In this document: in pieces, positions 1,795 through 12,273 of the stretch
Numbering within the stretch: the first letter of the stretch is position 1
Layout: every line of letters starts with the position of its first letter
Source: Minisyncoccota bacterium
Lineage (GTDB): Bacteria > Patescibacteriota > Minisyncoccia > Phycocordibacterales > UBA9973
Reading direction: 5' to 3'
Assembly: GCA_041674285.1 (NCBI GenBank)
Contig: JBAYVZ010000001.1
Location: 85,732-149,731, forward strand
DNA length: 64,000 bases
Made by a program: the position numbers and the translations under genes
Notes under the pieces: generated by a model
The model's input: only the letters and a program-made list of their open reading frames with translations
The model's database searches: none
Told to the model about the DNA's origin: nothing

Positions 1795-4146
1795 ATGGAC
1801 AAAAAATCACTAACAGAACAAGATATTTGCTCAAAATATATACTACCGGCCATTACAGATAGTGGTTGGGATTTAAAGCATCAAATCCGTGAACAGGTTA
1901 CTTTTACTGCCGGCAAGATTACCGTACGTGGCAAGACTGTTTCTCGTGGAGATCAAAAGCGTGCTGATATTATCTTGTATTACAAAAATGATTTACCGAT
2001 AGCTATCATTGAAGCTAAAGACAATAATCATGGAGTAGGTGCTGGTATGGAGCAGGGTCTTGGTTATGCTGAAGCTCTGGATATTCCTTTTGTTTTTAGT
2101 TCCAATGGGGATGCTTTTATTGAACATGATCGATTTGTGGCAGAGGGGGTTAAAGAAAGAGAAATATCTTTAGATAAATTCCCGTCACCTGAGGAGTTAT
2201 TTGAAAGATATAAAACAGCTAAAGGGATAGATAATAATATCGAAAATATAATTTCTGAAGAATATTTTCAGGAGCTTAAAGGTAAATCTCCTAGATATTT
2301 TCAAAGAGTAGCAATAAATAGAACAGTAGAAGCTGTAGCAAAAGCCCAAAAGCGTATTCTTTTGGTGATGGCTACGGGTACAGGTAAGACGTATACTGCA
2401 TTTCAGATTATTTGGCGTTTATGGAAGTCAAAATCTAAAAAAAGAATATTATTTCTTGTTGATAGAAATATATTAGCTGACCAGACTATGATCAATGATT
2501 TCAAGCATTTTGGAGACAAAATGACGAAAATAGAAAACCGAAATGTTGATAAATCTTACGAAGTTTATCTTGCTCTATATCAGGGGATTACTGGAAACGA
2601 AGAGGAGAAGAATATTTTTAAACAATTTTCTCCAGACTTTTTTGATTTGATCATTGTGGACGAGTGTCACCGTGGTAGTGCAAAAGACGACTCCGCTTGG
2701 CGTGAAGTTTTGGATTATTATTCAAATGCTACACAGATCGGCCTTACCGCTACACCAAAAGAAACAAAAGATATCTCTACTCAGTCATATTTTGGAGAGC
2801 CTATTTATACTTATTCATTAAAACAGGGTATAGATGATGGTTTTCTTGCTCCGTACAAGGTTATTCGAATTATTATCGATCGTGATGTGGAGGGGTATAG
2901 ACCAGAGGCCGGCAAGACAGATAAATACGGCAATGAGATTCCTGATCGTGTTTATAATACAAAAGATTTTGATCGTGATTTAGTTATAGACGAGCGCACA
3001 GAAATTGTAGCTAGAAAAATTACTGAATATATGAAAGAAACAGATCGTATGCAAAAAACGATTGTTTTCTGTGTGGATATAGATCATGCTGTTCGCATGC
3101 GTCAAGCATTAGCAAATGAAAATGCTGATATGGTTGCCGAAAATCGCAAATATGTTGTACGTATTACCGGAGACAATGAAGAGGGTAAGAGAGAATTGGA
3201 TAATTTTATTGACCCAGAAAATCCCTATCCGGTTATAGCAGTCACTTCAAAACTCATGACTACAGGAGTGGACGCTCAAACTTGTAGATTGATCGTTCTT
3301 GATCAAAATATTGGATCTATGACTGAATTCAAGCAAATAATCGGTCGTGGTACTCGTGTCCGAGAGGATTACAATAAAATGTATTTTACTATTATGGATT
3401 TCAGGAGTGTCACAGAGCTTTTTGCTGACCCAGATTTTGATGGTGACCCTGTTGTCGTGTATGAACCAAAAGGTGATGACCCTCTGAGTCCACCTGAAGA
3501 TATTATTGATCCAGTAGAACCAGAACCTGTTATATATCAAAAACCAAAGATAAACATCGGTGGTATTACTATTGGAGAGCCTCGTACAAAATTTTATGTA
3601 AATGGTATCGATGTAAAAGTTATAAATGAGCGTGTTCAATATATAGGCGAAGATGGTAAATTAATCACTGAATCCTTGAAAGATTATTCAAAGAAAAATA
3701 TTTTAAATGAGTATTCATCTCTGGATTCTTTTTTGAATGCCTGGAATCAGAGTGACAAAAAAGAAATAATAATAGAAGAATTAAAAAAGCAGGGTGTATT
3801 TTTTGAAGAATTAGAAAAAGAAGTTGGTAAAAATCTGGATCCATTTGATCTTGTTTGTCACATAGCTTATGGCAAGAAGCCTCTTACTCGCAAAGAGCGC
3901 GCAGAGAATGTCAGAAGGAATGATTACTTTGCAAAATACGAGGGCAAAGCCCGAGAGGTGATAGATGCTCTTTTGGAAAAATATGCAGATACAGGTATTA
4001 CCGCTATAGATGATATTGGTGATTTGCAGGTATCTCCTTTTACAAATTTTGGTACACCAGTGGAGATCGTAAACGAAATTTTCGGGGGGAGAGAAAAATA
4101 TTTAGAAGTTATTAGAAATATACAAAATAGCATTTATTTATGTTAG
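1795..4146 (+). CDS. hsdR: type I restriction enzyme R subunit (HsdR)
   Basis: HsdR_N-like N-terminus, SF2 helicase motifs MATGTGKT (Walker A), DECHR (motif II), TATP, QIIGRGTR; first gene of the R-M operon. Confidence 0.9.
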   Translation: MDKKSLTEQDICSKYILPAITDSGWDLKHQIREQVTFTAGKITVRGKTVSRGDQKRADIILYYKNDLPIAIIEAKDNNHGVGAGMEQGLGYAEALDIPFVFSSNGDAFIEHDRFVAEGVKEREISLDKFPSPEELFERYKTAKGIDNNIENIISEEYFQELKGKSPRYFQRVAINRTVEAVAKAQKRILLVMATGTGKTYTAFQIIWRLWKSKSKKRILFLVDRNILADQTMINDFKHFGDKMTKIENRNVDKSYEVYLALYQGITGNEEEKNIFKQFSPDFFDLIIVDECHRGSAKDDSAWREVLDYYSNATQIGLTATPKETKDISTQSYFGEPIYTYSLKQGIDDGFLAPYKVIRIIIDRDVEGYRPEAGKTDKYGNEIPDRVYNTKDFDRDLVIDERTEIVARKITEYMKETDRMQKTIVFCVDIDHAVRMRQALANENADMVAENRKYVVRITGDNEEGKRELDNFIDPENPYPVIAVTSKLMTTGVDAQTCRLIVLDQNIGSMTEFKQIIGRGTRVREDYNKMYFTIMDFRSVTELFADPDFDGDPVVVYEPKGDDPLSPPEDIIDPVEPEPVIYQKPKINIGGITIGEPRTKFYVNGIDVKVINERVQYIGEDGKLITESLKDYSKKNILNEYSSLDSFLNAWNQSDKKEIIIEELKKQGVFFEELEKEVGKNLDPFDLVCHIAYGKKPLTRKERAENVRRNDYFAKYEGKAREVIDALLEKYADTGITAIDDIGDLQVSPFTNFGTPVEIVNEIFGGREKYLEVIRNIQNSIYLC

Positions 4147-4158
4147 TTTGTATGTATA

Positions 4159-4187
4159 TTGACAATACAAACGAAAAGGTATAAAAT
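4159..4187 (+). promoter_or_regulatory. sigma70-like promoter for fic (TTGACA-17nt-TAAAAT) embedded in an 8-bp inverted repeat GTTTGTAT/ATACAAAC
   Basis: TTGACA at 4159-4164 and TAAAAT at 4182-4187 with 17-nt spacer; inverted repeat 4147-4154/4165-4172 brackets the -35. Confidence 0.45.
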
Positions 4188-4202
4188 GTTAGTATCTATC
4201 GT

Positions 4203-5375
4203 ATGAATACAAACAATAAAAAAACATATTCAATAGGAACTTATAGACCAGAAAAGGATGGGCTTAAAACATTCTTGCCAAATGCTTTTCCTGGTGATTT
4301 TGAGTTTTCTGGGAAGCTTTATAAGAAACAAAGTGAAGCATCTCATTATTTAGGTAAACTTGATGGTATTACAAAACTTTTACCCGATAAAGACTTTTTC
4401 TTGTTAATGTTTATTAAGAAAGACGCTACTTATTCTAGCCAGATCGAAGGTACTCAAGCGACATTTCAGGATGCTGTAGCCGTAGGTGCTTCTTCAGAGT
4501 ATGGAGCTGTTGATGGTAGTGATGTTCATGATATTGTTTATTACATCAAAGCTGTTAATTATGCTATGAAAAGAATTGTAGATTTTCCTCTTTCATTACG
4601 ACTAGTTAGAGAAATTCATGAAAAATTAATGAAAGGTGCTCGCTCAACACAACATGCTTATCCTGGAGAGTTTAGAAATTCTCAGAATTGGATCGGCGCA
4701 CGACTTCCCAAGGATGCAAGTTTTATCCCACCAAATGTTTCTGATATGAAAAATGCATTAGATGAGCTTGAAAAATTTATTCATGCGAAAGATGATTTTC
4801 CAGCACTCATAAAAGCAGGTCTTTTACATGCTCAATTTGAAACCATACATCCATTTACTGATGGTAATGGTCGTACTGGTAGAATGTTGATAACTCTTTA
4901 TTTGCATAAAGCAGGACTTTTGGAATTACCTGTTTTATATCTTTCAAGTTACTTTAAAAAATATCAAAAACTTTATTATTCAAAATTGGCAAGTTATCAT
5001 GATGAAGAGAGTGATATTGAGGGTTGGCTTAATTTCTTTTTAGATGGGGTTGTAGATACAGCACAGTCTTCAATAGAAACATGCGAAAAGATTATTGCAC
5101 TTAGAGAAAAGGATCATGCAAAAATTCAGACACTTGGAGTCAAAACAGCATCTAAAACATTTGAGGTTTTGCAACAGTTATACAAGCAACCAATAGTGGG
5201 TATCGCGGACATAGAAAAATGGACAAATTATACACAGCCAGGTGCCTACAAGATGATTCAGAGATTGATTGATTTAGATATTTTAGAACCATTGGGGGAT
5301 GTAAAGTATGGCCAAAAATATGTTTATACAAAGTATTACAAGATATTCGATTCTGATTTTATAAATAAAAAATAA
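4203..5375 (+). CDS. fic: Fic/DOC family protein (AMPylase-type; N-terminal Fic/DUF4172-like domain, C-terminal wHTH)
   Basis: Canonical Fic motif HPFTDGNGRTGR; upstream inhibitory-helix-like motif SSQIEGT ((S/T)xxxE(G/N)); located between hsdR and hsdM. Confidence 0.9.
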   Translation: MNTNNKKTYSIGTYRPEKDGLKTFLPNAFPGDFEFSGKLYKKQSEASHYLGKLDGITKLLPDKDFFLLMFIKKDATYSSQIEGTQATFQDAVAVGASSEYGAVDGSDVHDIVYYIKAVNYAMKRIVDFPLSLRLVREIHEKLMKGARSTQHAYPGEFRNSQNWIGARLPKDASFIPPNVSDMKNALDELEKFIHAKDDFPALIKAGLLHAQFETIHPFTDGNGRTGRMLITLYLHKAGLLELPVLYLSSYFKKYQKLYYSKLASYHDEESDIEGWLNFFLDGVVDTAQSSIETCEKIIALREKDHAKIQTLGVKTASKTFEVLQQLYKQPIVGIADIEKWTNYTQPGAYKMIQRLIDLDILEPLGDVKYGQKYVYTKYYKIFDSDFINKK

Positions 5376-5376
5376 C

Positions 5377-6807
5377 ATGGCCATACAATCTATAATAAAA
5401 AATATTCAAGACATCATGCGCAAAGACGCGGGCGTAGATGGTGATGCACAACGCCTTTCTCAGCTCGTATGGCTTTTGTTCTTAAAAATTTTCGACGACA
5501 AGGAAAAGGAATACGAGCTCGTTGATACAAAATACATTTCTCCTATTCCAGAGGATCTTCGCTGGCGTAATTGGGCGAGTAATGCCGAAGGCATCACTGG
5601 CGATGAGATGCTAGATTTCATAAACAATAAACTTTTCAAGCAACTCAAGGATCTAAAATTCAATAGCAGTGATGATCCTCGAGGTATGATAGTCAAAGAG
5701 GTTTTTGAGGATACTTACAACTATATGAAGTCTGGCACCTTGATTCGTCAGGTAGTAAATAAAATAAATGAGATAGATTTCAATAGCAAGGATGACCGCC
5801 ATCATTTCAATGAGATATACGAACATTTATTAAAGCAGCTTCAAAATGCGGGCAACGCTGGTGAATATTACACTCCTCGTCCGCTGACAAATTTTATTGT
5901 AAATACCCTTGATCCAAAATTAGGTGAAGATATTCTTGATCCCGCATGTGGTACTGGCGGATTTCTAATCAGTGCACTAGAATACATTCGTAATAGTGGA
6001 GAAATCAAAACTAAAAAAGACGAGACTAAACTTCAAAACCAAATTCATGGTGTAGAACTCAAACCACTCCCACACTTACTCGCTATTACAAATATGATTC
6101 TTCATGGAGTAGAGATTCCACAGCAGATAAAGCGTGGGGACATGCTCTCGCATCCACTTCGTGAATATGGTCCGAAAGATCGCGTGGATATTATAATCGC
6201 AAATCCTCCCTTCGGTGGTAGCGTAAAAGATGGCACTGAGGCAAACTTCCCAGCAGATTTTCGCACAAAGGAAACAGCTGATCTTTTTCTTGTATTATTT
6301 ATGGCATTATTGAAGCCTGGTGGCCGAGTCGGTATTGTCCTCCCAGACGGCTCACTCTTTGGTGAAGGGGTAAAATCTCGCATTAAAGAAAAGCTCCTTG
6401 AAGACTGCAACCTTCACACTATCATCCGCCTACCAGCAGGAGTATTCCAACCATATGCAGGGGTGAATACAAATCTAGTATTCTTTACAAAGGGTCAGCC
6501 TACAAAGGATGTCTGGTATTACCAGATGCCTCTACCAGCAGGAATGAAGCAGTATACAAAGAATCGTGGCATCACAGATGCAGAATTTGAAACTGTGGCA
6601 AAATGGTTCAAGAATAAAAAGGCAGGTGACAATGCATGGAAAGTATCTATCGCTGACATAAAAGCCCGCAATTTTAATCTTGATTTCAAGAACCCAAAGG
6701 GTGGGGAAGTTGAGGAAGAATTGAGTTCAAAGGAGTTGATTAAGAGAATTCAATCTGTCGAAGGTCAAATTACAAATACTTTTAGTGATATTTTGAAGAA
6801 TATATGA
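5377..6807 (+). CDS. hsdM: type I restriction-modification N6-adenine DNA methyltransferase (HsdM)
   Basis: HsdM_N-like N-terminus, SAM motif DPACGTGGFL, catalytic NPPFGG; stop overlaps the next ORF start (ATGA). Confidence 0.9.
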   Translation: MAIQSIIKNIQDIMRKDAGVDGDAQRLSQLVWLLFLKIFDDKEKEYELVDTKYISPIPEDLRWRNWASNAEGITGDEMLDFINNKLFKQLKDLKFNSSDDPRGMIVKEVFEDTYNYMKSGTLIRQVVNKINEIDFNSKDDRHHFNEIYEHLLKQLQNAGNAGEYYTPRPLTNFIVNTLDPKLGEDILDPACGTGGFLISALEYIRNSGEIKTKKDETKLQNQIHGVELKPLPHLLAITNMILHGVEIPQQIKRGDMLSHPLREYGPKDRVDIIIANPPFGGSVKDGTEANFPADFRTKETADLFLVLFMALLKPGGRVGIVLPDGSLFGEGVKSRIKEKLLEDCNLHTIIRLPAGVFQPYAGVNTNLVFFTKGQPTKDVWYYQMPLPAGMKQYTKNRGITDAEFETVAKWFKNKKAGDNAWKVSIADIKARNFNLDFKNPKGGEVEEELSSKELIKRIQSVEGQITNTFSDILKNI

Positions 6808-8189
6808 AACTGCATTCAATTCAAATAAAAAATTATAGAAGCATAGAAGATATTTCTTTTGAGATTATTCAATTAGATGATAAAAGTTTTACATATGGTC
6901 TGATTGGAGTTAATGAGGCTGGTAAATCGAGCATACTTAAAGCATTGTCATTAAAAGATGGATTAGTTCAGACTCAACAAAAAGATTTTCGTGATAAATC
7001 AAAGCCTGTTGAGGTCATTTATTCTTATGAACTTACTATTGAAGAGAGTAATGAATGTAAATCTATTTTGGAGCCAATACCTGATAATTTAATTTTTACT
7101 GATATTTCACTGAAAGCATATTTTTTAATCCAAAATCCAACACAAATAAATCTAGAATTTGATTTATTAAATATAACAAACGAGGAAAAAGCAAAAATCC
7201 AAGAAAAATTACAACAGTTGTTCTTATCTAAAATTCATAAGTCTGTTTTTTGGACAGCGGAAGATAAGTATTTAATTTCACAGCCAATAGATCTTAACGC
7301 TTTTGCTAATTCACCTGAAAATGTTTCGATTCCACTTAAAAATTGTTTTTATCTTGCTGGTATTTTAAATATCCAAGATAGAATAAGTTCTGTTGGTGTT
7401 GATTCTACTGAAATTGAGCAGCTTCAAACTGAACTCGGGGAAAAAGTAACAGATCATATTAAAACTGTTTGGCCAAATCATCCTATAGATATAACTTTTT
7501 TAATAAATAATGGCCAAATTAATTTTCATATAAAAGATGAGGGTGTTTCTGGTAAGGCAAAAACAGCAGATCAGAGAAGTGATGGTTTTAAGCAATTCGT
7601 ATCTTTTCTTCTTACTGTTTCTGCTCAAAATAAAAATGATGAACTTGCTAACTCAATTTTATTGCTTGATGAGCCTGAAACTCATCTACACCCACAAGCA
7701 CAAGAATATTTACTAGGAGAATTCATAAAGATTTCTTTAAATAATAGAAATAATATTGTATTTTTTGCTACCCATTCAAATTACATGATTGATAAGGGAG
7801 ATTTAAGTAGAAACTATAGGATTAAAAAAGAAAGTGGTAAGACAGAAAAAAATAAATTTGATAAAAAAAATTCCACATATGCGAGTGTAACTTATGAAGT
7901 TTTTGACATTCCAAGCACTGATTATCATAATGAGATTTATGGAAAATTGCATGATAGATATCAAGATGCAGATATTTCTGATGAAAAAAGATCTGGAGTG
8001 TTAAATTTTGATACTGGATTTTTGTATTCCGAAAAAGGGATTAAAAAAGATAAACCATGGAAGGGAAATATTAACCAAGCAACCCTACCTACATATATTA
8101 GGAATTGCATTCACCATCCTGATAATGGAGATAAATATAAAGATGTGGAATTAAGAAAATCTATAGAGTTGCTACGTTCTTATTTATGA
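6804..8189 (+). CDS. ABC/AAA_15-type ATPase with C-terminal HEPN-like RNxxxH motif (PrrC/RloC-like candidate anticodon nuclease, or RloA-like restriction-linked ATPase)
   Basis: Walker A GVNEAGKSS; ABC-like D/H-loop LLLDEPETHLHPQAQ; C-terminal ~150-aa extension containing RNCIHH (R-N-x3-H) about 30 aa from the C-terminus; translationally coupled between hsdM and hsdS. Confidence 0.7.
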   Translation: MKLHSIQIKNYRSIEDISFEIIQLDDKSFTYGLIGVNEAGKSSILKALSLKDGLVQTQQKDFRDKSKPVEVIYSYELTIEESNECKSILEPIPDNLIFTDISLKAYFLIQNPTQINLEFDLLNITNEEKAKIQEKLQQLFLSKIHKSVFWTAEDKYLISQPIDLNAFANSPENVSIPLKNCFYLAGILNIQDRISSVGVDSTEIEQLQTELGEKVTDHIKTVWPNHPIDITFLINNGQINFHIKDEGVSGKAKTADQRSDGFKQFVSFLLTVSAQNKNDELANSILLLDEPETHLHPQAQEYLLGEFIKISLNNRNNIVFFATHSNYMIDKGDLSRNYRIKKESGKTEKNKFDKKNSTYASVTYEVFDIPSTDYHNEIYGKLHDRYQDADISDEKRSGVLNFDTGFLYSEKGIKKDKPWKGNINQATLPTYIRNCIHHPDNGDKYKDVELRKSIELLRSYL

Positions 8190-8599
8190 AAAATAAACAC
8201 CAAACCTCAAAAATAAATTTAATCAAAGATTTTAAAATTGCTTTAAAGGATATGGAGCCATATGTAAAAAATCCAGACTATCTTATTAAAGGTAGAGAGT
8301 TTTCTAATTTTTCGTTAAGACCTAGAGAGGCTTGGGCGAATTGGTTGCTCTGTGTTGTTTTGAGAAAACTACATGGTGATAATATAACTTTTGCAGAGGA
8401 TCCCAATGGTGATGGTTTTATTGTTGATAAAAATACAGAAGAAATGATACAAACAGAGCATGTTTCAGCGCTGGAAAACCCTCTTAATCCTCAGCCAAAA
8501 GGAGAAAATAGAATTATAGATGCAATCAATTTAAAAATTATAAAAGGACCCGCATACGCTACTGGTAAATGGTTGGTGGTGTTTTTTGATGGGGCTTAA
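8186..8599 (+). CDS. hypothetical protein (restriction-linked ORF); the frame stays open for 69 further codons after an in-frame TAA (to 8806)
   Basis: 137-aa ORF overlapping the ATPase stop. After TAA at 8597-8599 the same frame has no stop until 8807-8809 despite AT-rich sequence. Confidence 0.4.
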   Translation: MKNKHQTSKINLIKDFKIALKDMEPYVKNPDYLIKGREFSNFSLRPREAWANWLLCVVLRKLHGDNITFAEDPNGDGFIVDKNTEEMIQTEHVSALENPLNPQPKGENRIIDAINLKIIKGPAYATGKWLVVFFDGA

Positions 8600-8810
8600 G
8601 AATTTTTCAGAAATAAAATAAGAGAAAACATAAAAGGTAGACATAATTTTGATGCTGTTTATTGCGTTGGTCTATTGACTGTGGATATAAATAGATACTC
8701 TTATATAGTTTCAGAATTTAAGGACTCTAGTGGAGAAAAATCTATATCTTTTAAAATAGATATTAATAATGATTTTACAGATTGGAACATTAATCAAATT
8801 CTTCAATAAT

Positions 8811-9938
8811 ATGAAAAATAATTGGCAAACAAAAAAAGTCGGGGATTGTTTAGAAAAAATACCTAGTTTGGGTAGTGTATTTAGTAGTCAAAATTTACAA
8901 ATTGGAAATTTTCCAATTATAGATCAGGGTCAAGATTTCATCACTGGGTATACAAATGATAAATCTTTAGTTTTTTCAGATTGTTTACCAGTGATTATTT
9001 TTGGAGACCACACACGAGCTTTGAAATTTATTGATTTTCCTTTTGCTGTTGGGGCAGATGGAACTAAAATACTAAAACCAAAAGCTGAATTTGATCCAAG
9101 ATTTTTCTATTACATGTTGTTATCTTTGGATTTAGGAAGTCGTGGATATGCTCGTCATTTTAAATTGCTAAAAGAATCAGAAATTCCACTCCCACCTCTA
9201 AAAACCCAAAAGGAAATTGTTGCGAAGTTGGGTGAGAAGATGGGGAAGATTAAAGAAGCGAAAAAATTACGGGAAGTGGCTATTGCTGACACTGAAAAAA
9301 TCCTCTCCCAAACCCTCCGCGAAATTTTTGAAGAAGGAAAAGAGAAAGGGTGGGAGGAAGTTTTCTTGAGAGATGTTTCTGAGGTTGTTGGTGGTGGAAC
9401 TCCAAGTACTTCAGTAAAGGGTTATTGGGACCAAACTTACGCATGGGCAACACCTAAAGACTTAGGAAGACTAAATTCGGTTTATATAAATAAGACAGAC
9501 AAAACAATATCAGAATTAGGTTTAAAAAATTCTTCAGCAAAACTTCTGCCTATTGGGTCAATTGTTTTTTCGTCACGTGCGCCAATCGGGTATTTGGCTA
9601 TTAATACTGTTCCTATGGCTACTAATCAAGGTTGTAGAAATTTTGTGTGTTCAGATAAAATAATTAATAAATTTCTCTATTACTCTTTAGTTTTTAATAG
9701 AGAATATATTAAGTCCCTAGGCTCAGGGTCAACATTTGCTGAAATATCAGGTTCAAAGCTAAAAGAAATTATAATATTTATTCCATCTCTTTCTGAACAA
9801 AAGAAAATTGTTACTAGGCTTGATGCACTTTCGGAAAAGATTCGCAAGGCGGTTGAGCTTCAAAAATCCCAGCTAGAGGATTTGAAAAAACTAGAAAAAG
9901 CCTATTTACGAGAAGCATTTAATGGGGAATTAATTTAA
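8811..9938 (+). CDS. hsdS: type I restriction-modification specificity subunit (HsdS), two target-recognition domains
   Basis: Central and C-terminal conserved HsdS helices (LPPLKTQKEIVAKLGEKMGKIKEAKKLRE... and IPSLSEQKKIVTRLDALSEKIRKAVELQKSQLEDLKK); an alternative upstream start at 8769 is possible. Confidence 0.85.
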   Translation: MKNNWQTKKVGDCLEKIPSLGSVFSSQNLQIGNFPIIDQGQDFITGYTNDKSLVFSDCLPVIIFGDHTRALKFIDFPFAVGADGTKILKPKAEFDPRFFYYMLLSLDLGSRGYARHFKLLKESEIPLPPLKTQKEIVAKLGEKMGKIKEAKKLREVAIADTEKILSQTLREIFEEGKEKGWEEVFLRDVSEVVGGGTPSTSVKGYWDQTYAWATPKDLGRLNSVYINKTDKTISELGLKNSSAKLLPIGSIVFSSRAPIGYLAINTVPMATNQGCRNFVCSDKIINKFLYYSLVFNREYIKSLGSGSTFAEISGSKLKEIIIFIPSLSEQKKIVTRLDALSEKIRKAVELQKSQLEDLKKLEKAYLREAFNGELI

Positions 9939-9946
9939 AATAATTT

Positions 9947-10378
9947 ATGTCAAAAAATAAAATTTCAGGAGATATGGGTGAGCAGGAGATTGTAGATTTG
10001 ATCGCTTGTCCTAATTGCAAGAAGAAGTTGATGTTATTACCTAAAAACTACCCATTATTCGATGTGCAGTGTGAGGGGTGTAGTTTTCGTGCTCAGGTGA
10101 AGACAAACAACACAAAGCCAAAGTCTATAATCTTTGGAGCTGGCTGGGATATTATGGAAAAAGTTTTAAAATCTGGATACATGGTTCCACCGCTGATAAC
10201 AAATTTTAAGTGGAGTGATAAGGGTGTGGATCATCAAGAGATTCGATTTTATCCTTTTGTACCGAAGATAAATTTAAAGATGCATCAGCTTTCTGGGGAG
10301 GCAAGACGCGCAAATTATAAAATGTTTAATTACATAGGAATAGACAAGCTTCCTTATTTTGAATTGTTTAAAAAATAA
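9947..10378 (+). CDS. hypothetical zinc-ribbon protein, possibly restriction-endonuclease-like
   Basis: CPNC...CEGC four-Cys cluster; N-terminal GDMGEQEIVDLIA resembles the start of Mrr/PD-(D/E)xK-like domains; directly follows hsdS. Confidence 0.45.
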   Translation: MSKNKISGDMGEQEIVDLIACPNCKKKLMLLPKNYPLFDVQCEGCSFRAQVKTNNTKPKSIIFGAGWDIMEKVLKSGYMVPPLITNFKWSDKGVDHQEIRFYPFVPKINLKMHQLSGEARRANYKMFNYIGIDKLPYFELFKK

Positions 10379-10383
10379 AAATT

Positions 10384-10959
10384 ATGAAAAAAGATATTTT
10401 TGAGCAAATAACAGAAGATTATTTTAGAAAATTGGGTTATTTTACTGTCGGAAATGAAAGATATAAGCCTGCTGGGGTAGGAGTTAATTCTGATATTGAT
10501 GTTTTAGCTATGCATCCACTCAGTAATGATCTTGTGGTTGTAAGTTGTAAAGGGTGGCAATCTGGGATTAATATAAGAGAAATATTAGAAACTCTTAAAA
10601 CAAATCCAGATAAAATTATTCGTGGTGGGACCTTCAGAAAAAGACTCAGAGAAATAGCAGACGAAGACTCAGCCAAGGAGTTAAAAAAGAAAGTTTATTC
10701 TTTAACAGGCAAAGACTCCTTTACTTTTTATTTGTCAGTTGTTGATTATAAAGGCAATAAAGATGATTTTGAAAATTTCTATTTGTTCAAGAAAAACTTA
10801 CCTAATTGTGATATAAAAATTATCACCTTTAGGAATATGATTGAATTTCTAGATTTAAATAAAACCACAACTCCATCACATAGCGATATAATACACATAT
10901 TGCAGTTATTAAAAGCAGCGAAAGGTGAAATTATTTTTAAAGAAATAATACAGCCATGA
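10384..10959 (+). CDS. Mrr-cat-like restriction endonuclease domain protein (PD-(D/E)xK fold)
   Basis: FEQITEDYFRKLGYFTV...GVNSDIDVLAMHP...DLVVVSCKGW follows the Mrr_cat pattern (FE..LV..LL..GY.V..GDGGID..A..(V/I)QCK), here with a (S)CK variant. Confidence 0.5.
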   Translation: MKKDIFEQITEDYFRKLGYFTVGNERYKPAGVGVNSDIDVLAMHPLSNDLVVVSCKGWQSGINIREILETLKTNPDKIIRGGTFRKRLREIADEDSAKELKKKVYSLTGKDSFTFYLSVVDYKGNKDDFENFYLFKKNLPNCDIKIITFRNMIEFLDLNKTTTPSHSDIIHILQLLKAAKGEIIFKEIIQP

Positions 10960-11028
10960 CCCAAAGCCCTGTCTGAGGGGTTTTTGAGCTATTTGCATCC
11001 TTTTTTAAAAGGGATATTATGAGAGTAT

Positions 11029-11703
11029 ATGAAGATTAAGGATATATTCCATAAAATCAAATCCCGTGTTTCTAGGACCCAATTGGGCTTATTTGTGTTT
11101 GCAATTTTGTTTGCTGGTATTGCATTTTTTCTTATATCTGAGAATAGGGATGGAGAATGTTCGCCAGAGTATAAAATACAGAGAAAGTATCTTAATAAAG
11201 ATATGTCGTCTTTGGAATTTAATTTTGATAAATACAAGACCAAAAATTCAAGACCCGAAACACTAAAATCTCTAGATTTAAATTATAGTAAGACAGCTAA
11301 AGAATTCAGAACTAGTATAATTTATCAGCTAAAAGATGAAATTGATTTTGACGGCAAATATACAGTGGTGGGTACTGGCATGACTGGATGGGATGGTCCA
11401 GTATGGATAGTCGACAGATCAAATGGTAAAGCTTATGAATTCCCATATCATCACTATCGTTTTTCTCTTGATTATAGTAAAGATAGTAACCTGATTGTAG
11501 TAAATTCAAAAGAAAGAATAAAAGAAATGCATGAAATTCACGGTTGTTCCTATTTAAACATTATGGAAGATATAGTGAGAGGAGCCTACGATTTAAGGCC
11601 TCATTATTTTGTCTGGGAGGACGGAGAATTTAAATATCTAGGACCCCAGAGCTATACTCCTAATAAAAATCCTTTTTGGGGAGATTATTTTAATAATAAT
11701 TAA
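11029..11703 (+). CDS. hypothetical membrane-anchored protein
   Basis: N-terminal TM helix LGLFVFAILFAGIAFFLI followed by a soluble domain; no recognisable motif. Confidence 0.45.
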   Translation: MKIKDIFHKIKSRVSRTQLGLFVFAILFAGIAFFLISENRDGECSPEYKIQRKYLNKDMSSLEFNFDKYKTKNSRPETLKSLDLNYSKTAKEFRTSIIYQLKDEIDFDGKYTVVGTGMTGWDGPVWIVDRSNGKAYEFPYHHYRFSLDYSKDSNLIVVNSKERIKEMHEIHGCSYLNIMEDIVRGAYDLRPHYFVWEDGEFKYLGPQSYTPNKNPFWGDYFNNN

Positions 11704-11712
11704 ATATTTCTG

Positions 11713-12273
11713 ATGATTCTTAAAAAAATACAAGAAAATTATTATAAAGATTTAAGGAAAGAATATGTTCCGAATAAAATTGACACGGTTTTTATTTTGG
11801 AATCTGTTCCAAGTGCAGATTCATATTTTTATAATATAGAAACTTCAAATAGGACTGTTATTAATACGTTTGCTAGACTATTGAATATAGAAAATCCAAA
11901 AGAATTTACACCCTCTTATATTTTAGATAAATTTGTTAATAAAAATTATATTATTCTTGATGCATTATATGAACCAATTGATAAATTATCTAGCAAAGAA
12001 AGAAGACAAAAAATAAAGGATAATAAACTTGAAATCAAAAAAGAACTTACTAATTTAGTTAAAGATAAAAATATAAAAATTATTCTTGTTAGTAAGTATG
12101 TTTATGAGGAGTTAGCAGGTGCACTCAGAGAAGATGGGTGGAATATTTTAAATAAAGAAAAAGGGGGAATGGTCCCTTTCCCTGGTAATGGATGGCAAAA
12201 AAAATTTATTAGAATAGTTTTAGCATTATTGCAGTCAGGCCCTAGGGTTCTGACTGGTAAGCAAGGACGGTGA
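11713..12273 (+). CDS. hypothetical protein
   Basis: 186-aa ORF, AT-rich, no recognised motif. Confidence 0.4.
   Translation: MILKKIQENYYKDLRKEYVPNKIDTVFILESVPSADSYFYNIETSNRTVINTFARLLNIENPKEFTPSYILDKFVNKNYIILDALYEPIDKLSSKERRQKIKDNKLEIKKELTNLVKDKNIKIILVSKYVYEELAGALREDGWNILNKEKGGMVPFPGNGWQKKFIRIVLALLQSGPRVLTGKQGR

Follow-up and report, generated by a model that had tools for sequence, protein, structure and literature searches.

An ABC ATPase-HEPN fusion gene within a type I hsd operon of a Minisyncoccota bacterium: a candidate ATP-gated RNase defence gene analogous to PrrC

Introduction

To our knowledge, PrrC is the textbook and almost unique case in which a restriction enzyme is guarded by a suicide RNase. 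It belongs to Pfam family AAA_13, its gene sits between hsdS and hsdR, and its cleavage of the tRNA-Lys anticodon loop is set off by phage T4 Stp, GTP or dTTP. Here a gene of comparable architecture is described from a window of 64,000 nucleotides (the whole stretch of DNA analysed; contig JBAYVZ010000001.1, positions 85,732 to 149,731, assembly GCA_041674285.1) of a Minisyncoccota bacterium. The gene lies on the plus strand of the window, downstream of hsdM and upstream of hsdS, and encodes an ABC ATPase head followed by a HEPN-like C-terminal domain. It was read as a single-polypeptide ATP-gated RNase defence gene, an analogue of PrrC and not its orthologue, with a probability that we put at about 0.6.

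The hallmarks of PrrC are a PrrC box (82-YYNAFYEDLFYWDND-96) between the Walker A and Q-loop regions (PMC3025547), a LARP motif, and the essential residues R320/N321/E324 and R349/H356 (PMC3025547, PMC3458546). The prrC gene is always linked to hsd genes, and the related RloC carries a coiled-coil/zinc-hook (CxxC) insert (PMC3458546). ABC-HEPN fusions in restriction-modification (R-M) and Fic neighbourhoods were predicted in a 2013 census, which described neighbourhoods combining R-M genes, Fic/Doc and ABC-HEPN, as well as an ERFG_01251 group of ABC proteins with a classical MNT-like HEPN domain, found sporadically in CRISPR-Cas neighbourhoods and with HEPN/Toprim-NTD1 fusions and not between hsdM and hsdS (PMC3710099). 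The combination of an ABC ATPase and a HEPN domain in R-M operons is already known from PrrC, RloC and that census. The present family differs from the characterised examples in its ATPase clade, in its HEPN lineage and motif, in where the gene is inserted, and in a linkage to R-M genes that is facultative. The principle of 'guilt by embedding' was reportedly formalised in 2024.

Results

The C-terminal domain

The gene and its parts are listed below; alignment A1 comprises 24 full-length homologues at 50-68% identity, and AF2 denotes AlphaFold2.

6804..8189 (+), complete ABC ATPase-HEPN fusion gene of 461 amino acids with its stop codon at 8187-8189 (open reading frame list, homologues, AF2 model)
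6804..7859 (+), OLD/AriA/GajA/PtuA-class ABC ATPase head, residues 1 to ~352 (Pfam, PADLOC, Foldseek)
6906..6932 (+), Walker A/P-loop GVNEAGKSS, residues 35-43 (regular expression; G35, N37, E38, G40 and K41 invariant in A1)
7572..7595 (+), ABC signature (C-loop)-like QRSDGFKQ, residues 257-264 (Q257, R258, S259, G261 and F262 invariant in A1)
7659..7703 (+), Walker B and D-loop LLLDEPETHLHPQAQ, residues 286-300 (D289 through P297 invariant in A1)
7761..7778 (+), H-loop/switch histidine FFATHS, residues 320-325 (F321, A322, T323, H324 and S325 invariant in A1)
7875..8186 (+), HEPN-like helical domain, residues ~358-461 (AF2 model)
7920..7946 (+), polar cluster D373-Y-H375-N-E377-L-Y379..K381, candidate second acidic HEPN element, Ex3K here (conservation in 140 representatives)
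8100..8117 (+), Rx4H motif R433-N434-C-I-H437-H438, predicted RNase catalytic site (conservation in 140 representatives)

Conservation was counted over 140 diverse cluster representatives with at most 50% mutual identity. The most conserved feature of the C-terminal module was RNxxxH, which in the window protein is RNCIHH (residues 433-438, 28 residues from the C-terminus). Arg was present at R433 in all 140 representatives, N434 was Asn in 121 and His in 17 (N or H in 138 of 140), and H438 was His in 135 and Tyr in 5. Position H437 was variable, with H in 91, D in 36 and N in 9. From these counts, the conserved pair is R433/H438, which makes a canonical Rx4H whose Arg is followed by a polar residue. 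An impression from the 24-sequence alignment that H437 was the better conserved of the two histidines was reversed in the larger set (H438 96%, H437 65%). Outside the motif, H375 was His in 133 of the 140 and S453 was Ser in 136; in A1, the C-terminal region (~352-461) was among the best-conserved stretches of the protein. Retention of the Arg and the His among relatives, proposed as a check in the initial annotation of this DNA, was thereby confirmed. In composition-preserving shuffles, R[NHDQ]xxxH was found anywhere in 6.7% and within the last 130 residues in 1.8%; the motif in one sequence is thus weak evidence, and it is conservation across the family that carries the case.

In the AF2 model, the C-terminal region has helices at 372-389, 394-410, 430-437 (bearing the motif) and 447-460, with a beta-hairpin insert at ~417-426. 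When the domain was modelled alone (predicted local distance difference test score, pLDDT, 83.9), helices were obtained at 20-38, 43-59, 77-86 and 96-109 and the hairpin at 66-75 in domain numbering; the third helix carries TLPTYIRNCIH and is followed by a loop and the terminal helix. The four-helix layout required by the HEPN definition of PMC3710099 is present in the predicted structure only. The same source locates Rx4-6H, its Arg followed by a polar residue (N/D/H), where helix 3 ends, and the Rx4H of the window protein takes that position in the model, at the end of helix 430-437, after the insert that follows helix 2. Likenesses listed for the domain are Cas13h1, Cas13bt3, Cas13b, PspCas13b, HI0074, TTHA0636, AF0298 and the HEPN toxins 8xdj, 5yep and 7ae2, with YutE, Csm6 and Csx1-Crn2 somewhat lower. 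The HEPN assignment of the C-terminal domain, and with it the domain order given in the initial annotation, is supported by the Rx4H conservation and by the modelled four-helix module, and R433, N434 and H438 are predicted to form a metal-independent RNase site.

The ATPase head

In the ATPase head, Walker A is separated from the signature motif by a large insert. The Walker A and Walker B/D-loop/H-loop sequences reported initially were all found in the translation at the places given for them. Pfam searches of the protein gave AAA_15 (2.9e-22, 80.3 bits vs a cutoff of 32.1) and AAA_21 (8.6e-16, 59.3 bits vs a cutoff of 27). The top PADLOC models were Old (1.2e-25), AriA, AbiLi (9e-20), GajA, HEC-01A and PtuA, all within residues 1 to ~370. 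The full-length AF2 model (pLDDT 86.5, predicted template modelling score 0.83) matched Rad50/SMC heads, PtuA and GajA at E ~1e-14 in a Foldseek search against the PDB, and the Walker B/D-loop stretch matched the OLD-family nuclease structure 6p74. Pfam gave no match to Toprim or OLD-like_TOPRIM in the window protein, and the C-terminal domain is helical in the AF2 model.

With OLD, GajA, AriA, PtuA and AbiLi-RloA, the window protein shares an AAA_15/AAA_21 head, a DEPExHLHP Walker B/D-loop, a defence-island context and a sensor-plus-nuclease logic. The effectors of those systems are Toprim, HNH or other domains, fused or separate, whereas here a HEPN-like domain is fused and there is no partner gene. 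RloA/AbiLi-type AAA_21 ATPases pair with an adjacent RloB/AbiLii-type gene. The RloA-like AAA_21 ATPase that had been offered initially as an alternative identity is right as to the ATPase clade but overlooks the nuclease-like domain and lacks an RloB-like partner; the gene immediately downstream, ORF207, has no Pfam or PADLOC match and is not conserved beside relatives.

Relation to PrrC and RloC

The initial annotation proposed the protein as a PrrC/RloC-like candidate. The ABC NTPase motif set (Walker A, C-loop, Walker B, H-loop) is generic to many ABC ATPases and does not discriminate for PrrC. As a control, WP_000423308.1 was used, an RloC-type protein from E. coli APEC O1. This protein of 738 amino acids is encoded at L092:45933-48149 (NC_008563.1 925932-928148) in a P2-like prophage, where it fills the moron slot that separates the genes for the replication endonuclease and the portal; it has the motifs IPNIMRNILE and RYINRGSH and is probably APECO1_4465 of the census. 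The Joint Genome Institute (JGI) gives its C-terminal relatives the name 'wobble nucleotide-excising tRNase'.

Pfam AAA_13 (PF13166), the sequence signature of the PrrC/RloC clade, covers both the ATPase and the nuclease region. The control gave a match to it (2e-111; model positions 11-713 of 713), whereas the window protein did not match AAA_13 even at E <= 0.1. BLASTP of the window protein against the control gave E = 0.17, over the ATPase motifs only. An alignment of 27 RloC-type C-terminal regions (A4) had the motifs LPNxMRNILE and RYINRESH (Rx6H), and hhalign of the family C-terminal alignment (A3) against A4, which represents RloC-type domains and not PrrC itself, returned a probability of 0.2% (E = 0.31). 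The PADLOC PrrC/RloC models gave no match to the C-terminal domain in the 24 members scanned. No W[DE]N[DE]-type motif of the PrrC box was found in the window protein by a simple pattern test (not a profile), nor any CxxC zinc hook in its 461 residues, nor a LARP motif or a separate RNxxE motif.

The likeness to PrrC (EcoPrrC of the EcoprrI type Ic hsd locus) consists of an N-terminal ABC NTPase and a C-terminal HEPN-superfamily domain of ~100-120 amino acids on one polypeptide, encoded on the same strand within a type I R-M operon, with the logic of a second line behind restriction. The differences are AAA_13 and a PrrC box in PrrC vs AAA_15/AAA_21 and DEPETHLHP here; RNxxE, Rx6H (R349/H356, as in RYINRESH of RloC-type proteins) and LARP vs a single classical RNxxxH, that is Rx4H; and here an insertion between hsdM and hsdS, not beside hsdR, with an EcoEI-like hsdR. 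RloC likewise joins an ABC ATPase to HEPN, is mostly solitary and self-regulated, and occurs sometimes near R-M/Fic genes and on mobile elements; it differs in having ~740 or more residues, a coiled-coil/zinc-hook and AAA_13, as against 461 residues, no CxxC and an unrelated nuclease-domain sequence here. Given the BLASTP, hhalign, motif, CxxC and PrrC-box results, membership in the PrrC/RloC family is unsupported, and at the level of the sequences compared the resemblance is one of architecture and context.

Relatives and their neighbourhoods

A hidden Markov model (HMM) of the C-terminal region was searched against 1.84 billion cluster representatives at E <= 1e-3, giving 692 proteins. In nearly all of them the domain was at the extreme C-terminus of a protein of 400-530 amino acids, and a Walker A motif was found near the N-terminus in 77 of 89 long representatives (149 retrieved). 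The family comprises ~700 clusters at 50% identity in many phyla, and plasmids of Klebsiella and Weissella carry solitary distant relatives with an intact motif; a phage collection yielded none. Homologues from cultivable hosts include WP_064155835.1 of K. quasipneumoniae and QEA58179.1 of Weissella hellenica. The window protein itself had 834 homologues and was 100% identical to a 'Candidatus Paceibacterota' metagenome-assembled genome protein at NCBI, so the initial guess of a Patescibacteria-like organism was right. The expectation that the gene would be a rare instance in such genomes did not hold, as the family is common in candidate phyla radiation (CPR) lineages. Pfam-A, PADLOC-DB 2.0.0 and NCBIfam hold no model for the C-terminal domain or for the family as such, and a full-text literature search returned no paper on this fusion beyond the 2013 census (PMC3710099).

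A scan of species-representative genomes gave 80 loci, and 41 loci (the window and 40 others) were analysed for neighbours within 3 kb. The only recurrent neighbours were HsdS (13 loci), HsdR (11) and HsdM (11), in every case on the same strand; no other conserved partner gene was found in the 41 loci. About one third of the loci (13 of 41) were linked to hsd, usually with the gene between hsdM and hsdS, and the rest were solitary. The usual order was hsdM, ATPase-HEPN, hsdS, hsdR with gaps of 0-150 nucleotides, and in embedded loci the junctions with hsdM were tight or overlapping. The link to a type I hsd operon made in the initial annotation thus recurs in relatives, and an earlier view that the embedding was peculiar to the window, taken from the first five neighbourhoods, all solitary, was overturned by the scan.

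Embedding was concentrated in closer relatives (9 of 13 loci at identities of at least 47%), and relatives at 39-44% identity were solitary. In nine of ten embedded loci (L012-L050), the ATPase-HEPN protein was 47-63% identical to the window copy vs 27-39% for the flanking HsdM; the exception was L019, with 55% for HsdM and 59% for HsdR. Because the gene is more conserved than the flanking HsdM in these nine loci, the pattern suggests that ATPase-HEPN spreads in a cassette-like manner into unrelated hsd operons, landing at the hsdM-hsdS junction. At one locus (L014), a Fic gene whose product is 60% identical to that of the window lies upstream of the ATPase-HEPN relative; the Fic association there and in the window echoes the R-M, Fic/Doc and ABC-HEPN neighbourhoods of PMC3710099.

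A 303-amino-acid protein was encoded convergently with a solitary ATPase-HEPN relative in one CPR genome (L002:9513-10424 (-) and L003:1574-2485 (-)). It had a weak match to the classical HEPN family PF05168, with a helix-turn-helix gene beside it in L002, and may be a coincidental second HEPN gene.

Other genes of the locus

The gene order in the window is hsdR, a SoFic-like Fic gene, hsdM, ATPase-HEPN, ORF207, hsdS, a DpnI-like gene and an Mrr-like gene. The features flanking the ATPase-HEPN gene are as follows.

1795..4146 (+), hsdR, ResIII helicase and EcoEI_R_C (Pfam)
4203..5375 (+), Fic/SoFic-like gene between hsdR and hsdM (Pfam Fic and Fic_N; PADLOC SoFic 2e-107)
5377..6807 (+), hsdM, type I methyltransferase (Pfam N6_Mtase 1.6e-71 and HsdM_N)
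8186..8809 (+), ORF207, interrupted gene of ~207 amino acids (homologues of ~200-210 amino acids; the frame match resumes past a TAA)
8811..9938 (+), hsdS, specificity subunit, probable start 8811 (Pfam Methylase_S 8.6e-41)

The start codon of ATPase-HEPN shares nucleotides with the hsdM stop in ATGA at 6804-6807. The coupling to hsdM proposed initially agrees with this overlap; on the other side, ORF207, a gene that the initial annotation had overlooked, intervenes before hsdS. The start of hsdS in the open reading frame list is 8769; the likelier ATG is at 8811, 1 nucleotide past the ORF207 stop, giving the N-terminus MKNNWQTKK.

The ATG of ORF207 (8186) overlaps the ATPase-HEPN stop. An in-frame TAA at 8597-8599 ends ORF207 after 137 codons, where homologues have Gly or Glu, and past it the frame stays intact and matches homologues up to the TAA at 8807-8809. 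The ORF207 family has 291 homologues, mostly from CPR/Paceibacterota, and ORF207 had no match in Pfam, PADLOC or the PDB apart from interleukin-2 (E = 0.005, a short NFxLRPR stretch), which was judged a chance match. It was found at none of the 40 other ATPase-HEPN loci. A role as partner of ATPase-HEPN was rejected, the gene being interrupted here, absent from the 40 other loci and of no known family. Elsewhere, members of the ORF207 family lie 2-8 nucleotides 3' of HEPN_AbiU2 genes (L009, L010) or of a SIR2_2 and DUF87 pair (L008), and these neighbours suggest a defence-associated accessory gene.

With its SoFic, DpnI-like and Mrr-like genes, the segment around the ATPase-HEPN gene forms a defence island (Pfam, PADLOC). 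The SoFic-like gene is a second defence gene embedded within the same hsd operon. Two small genes lie 3' of hsdS within 9947-10959, one DpnI-like (PF06044 4e-10; 143 amino acids, shorter than the 183-position model) and one Mrr_cat-like (6.5e-05); both may be components, or else remnants, of methyl-directed restriction. The G+C content is 0.31-0.36 over the hsd/defence segment (~2000-12000) vs 0.40-0.41 in flanking 2-kb bins, a dip consistent with a horizontally acquired island.

Discussion

The mechanism proposed for a one-gene ATP-gated RNase was drawn by analogy with PrrC/RloC, PARIS, Gabija, ABC-ATPase defence sensors and dimeric HEPN RNases. In an uninfected cell, the ATPase head would hold the HEPN domains apart or occluded. 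An infection cue, for which the candidates are an anti-restriction protein made by the phage, the loss of the Hsd complex and a DNA or nucleotide signal, would alter the head's nucleotide or dimerisation state, upon which two HEPN domains would join to form a composite active site. RNA (tRNA, rRNA or mRNA) would then be cut, translation would halt and the phage would not be propagated, as in abortive infection. Within an hsd operon, as in the window and about a third of relatives, the gene would be co-transcribed and may back up restriction as a second defence, like PrrC. By the same analogies, RNase activity, ATP gating and a role in defence are presumed, as are the trigger and the substrate.

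Several results weigh against this reading. For the domain model, a Foldseek search of the PDB gave nothing below E = 2.8. Pfam gave no match to the C-terminal domain of the window protein even at E <= 10, PDB sequence-profile searches with alignments A2 and A3 gave nothing, and 51 diverse members searched against Pfam had no significant match to a curated HEPN family. A weak match to DUF3644, a HEPN family, in 2 of the 51 members (E = 0.017) is a hint only, and the Cas13d PADLOC models were weakly matched by one of the 24 members scanned. Profile searches of this region, of the kind proposed in the initial annotation, gave no significant HEPN or PrrC match in Pfam, PADLOC or the PDB, nor in hhalign against RloC-type domains. 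Conservation of the Ex3[KR] element is partial, with E377 being Glu in 101 of the 140 representatives (72%) and Gln in 20, and the +4 position K381 is not conserved. Finally, about two thirds of the relatives are solitary, so an R-M complex cannot be what silences the family in general.

With most relatives standing alone, control has to be intrinsic, as it is in RloC. The high share of solitary genes also weakens the initial proposal of a protein kept latent by the R-M complex, and guarding of the Hsd complex in the manner of PrrC is possible, by analogy, in the embedded clade. In a bolder form of the argument, which we hold as a tentative and rather doubtful proposal, the gene would be an independent analogue of PrrC, a one-gene cassette of an OLD-class ABC ATPase and an Rx4H HEPN domain that has entered unrelated type I operons of CPR, Bacteroidota and Proteobacteria on repeated occasions, at the hsdM-hsdS junction. 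There it would keep watch on the methyltransferase/specificity core and fire once phage anti-restriction proteins put that core out of action, a 'restriction guard' that arose by convergence from another ATPase and another HEPN lineage.

Among the other explanations, the one that survives best is that the C-terminal module is non-catalytic and the protein an ABC ATPase serving as sensor or scaffold, in the manner of AriA, PtuA or RloA/AbiLi. Its helical tail would bind a partner or nucleic acid, and HsdR, ORF207 or some other nuclease would be the effector in trans. Separate effectors are used by the closest ATPase relatives (AriA, PtuA, AbiLi, HEC-01A), a small gene is translationally coupled downstream in the window, and the failure of sequence searches to link the domain significantly to a catalytic HEPN family would fit as well. 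Non-catalytic HEPN domains are on record, but they typically lose the Rx4-6H motif (PMC3710099), whereas here the Arg is invariant and the His is kept in 96%. Nor is there a conserved partner in which such an effector could be sought, as hsd genes recur at only a third of the loci and ORF207 is interrupted here and missing from all the others. We consider this explanation unlikely.

It is less probable still that the protein assists the type I R-M enzyme as an accessory factor and is no independent defence effector, being for example a modulating ATPase (restriction alleviation, complex assembly) or a DNA nuclease. The conserved hsdM-hsdS position with overlapping codons in many lineages speaks for such a role, as do a weak match, far below cutoff, to NCBIfam TIGR04435 ('restriction system-associated AAA family ATPase') and the DNA-acting OLD and Gabija nucleases within the ATPase class. 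About two thirds of members, however, have no hsd gene nearby, and the greater identity of the gene than of HsdM in nine of ten embedded loci suggests an autonomous cassette and not a subunit that co-evolves with the enzyme. Neither Toprim nor any other DNase signature is present in the C-terminal domain, which resembles RNase-type HEPN domains.

A true PrrC/RloC orthologue, held latent by the Hsd complex and cutting the tRNA-Lys anticodon loop upon restriction inhibition, is very improbable, having been largely refuted by the profile tests despite the same architecture, the type I hsd operon beside a Fic gene (a context of PMC3710099) and a local likeness between TLPTYIRN in the window and LPNxMRN in RloC-type domains, and with most relatives free of R-M genes where prrC is always linked.

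HEPN-MNT toxins and Cas13 HEPN domains are controlled by an MNT antitoxin (AMPylation) or by CRISPR RNA and target, unlike the fused ABC ATPase here, and no significant sequence similarity to them was found in Pfam and PDB profile searches. The window family fits the description of the ERFG_01251 ABC-HEPN group of 2013 (prototype gi 422781011) and may be that group.

If the reading of an ATP-gated RNase is true, the family would be a second solution to the problem that PrrC solves, built from different parts. It would offer a compact one-gene system for the gating of a HEPN nuclease by an ABC ATPase, and the family is a candidate for inclusion in defence-system annotation tools.

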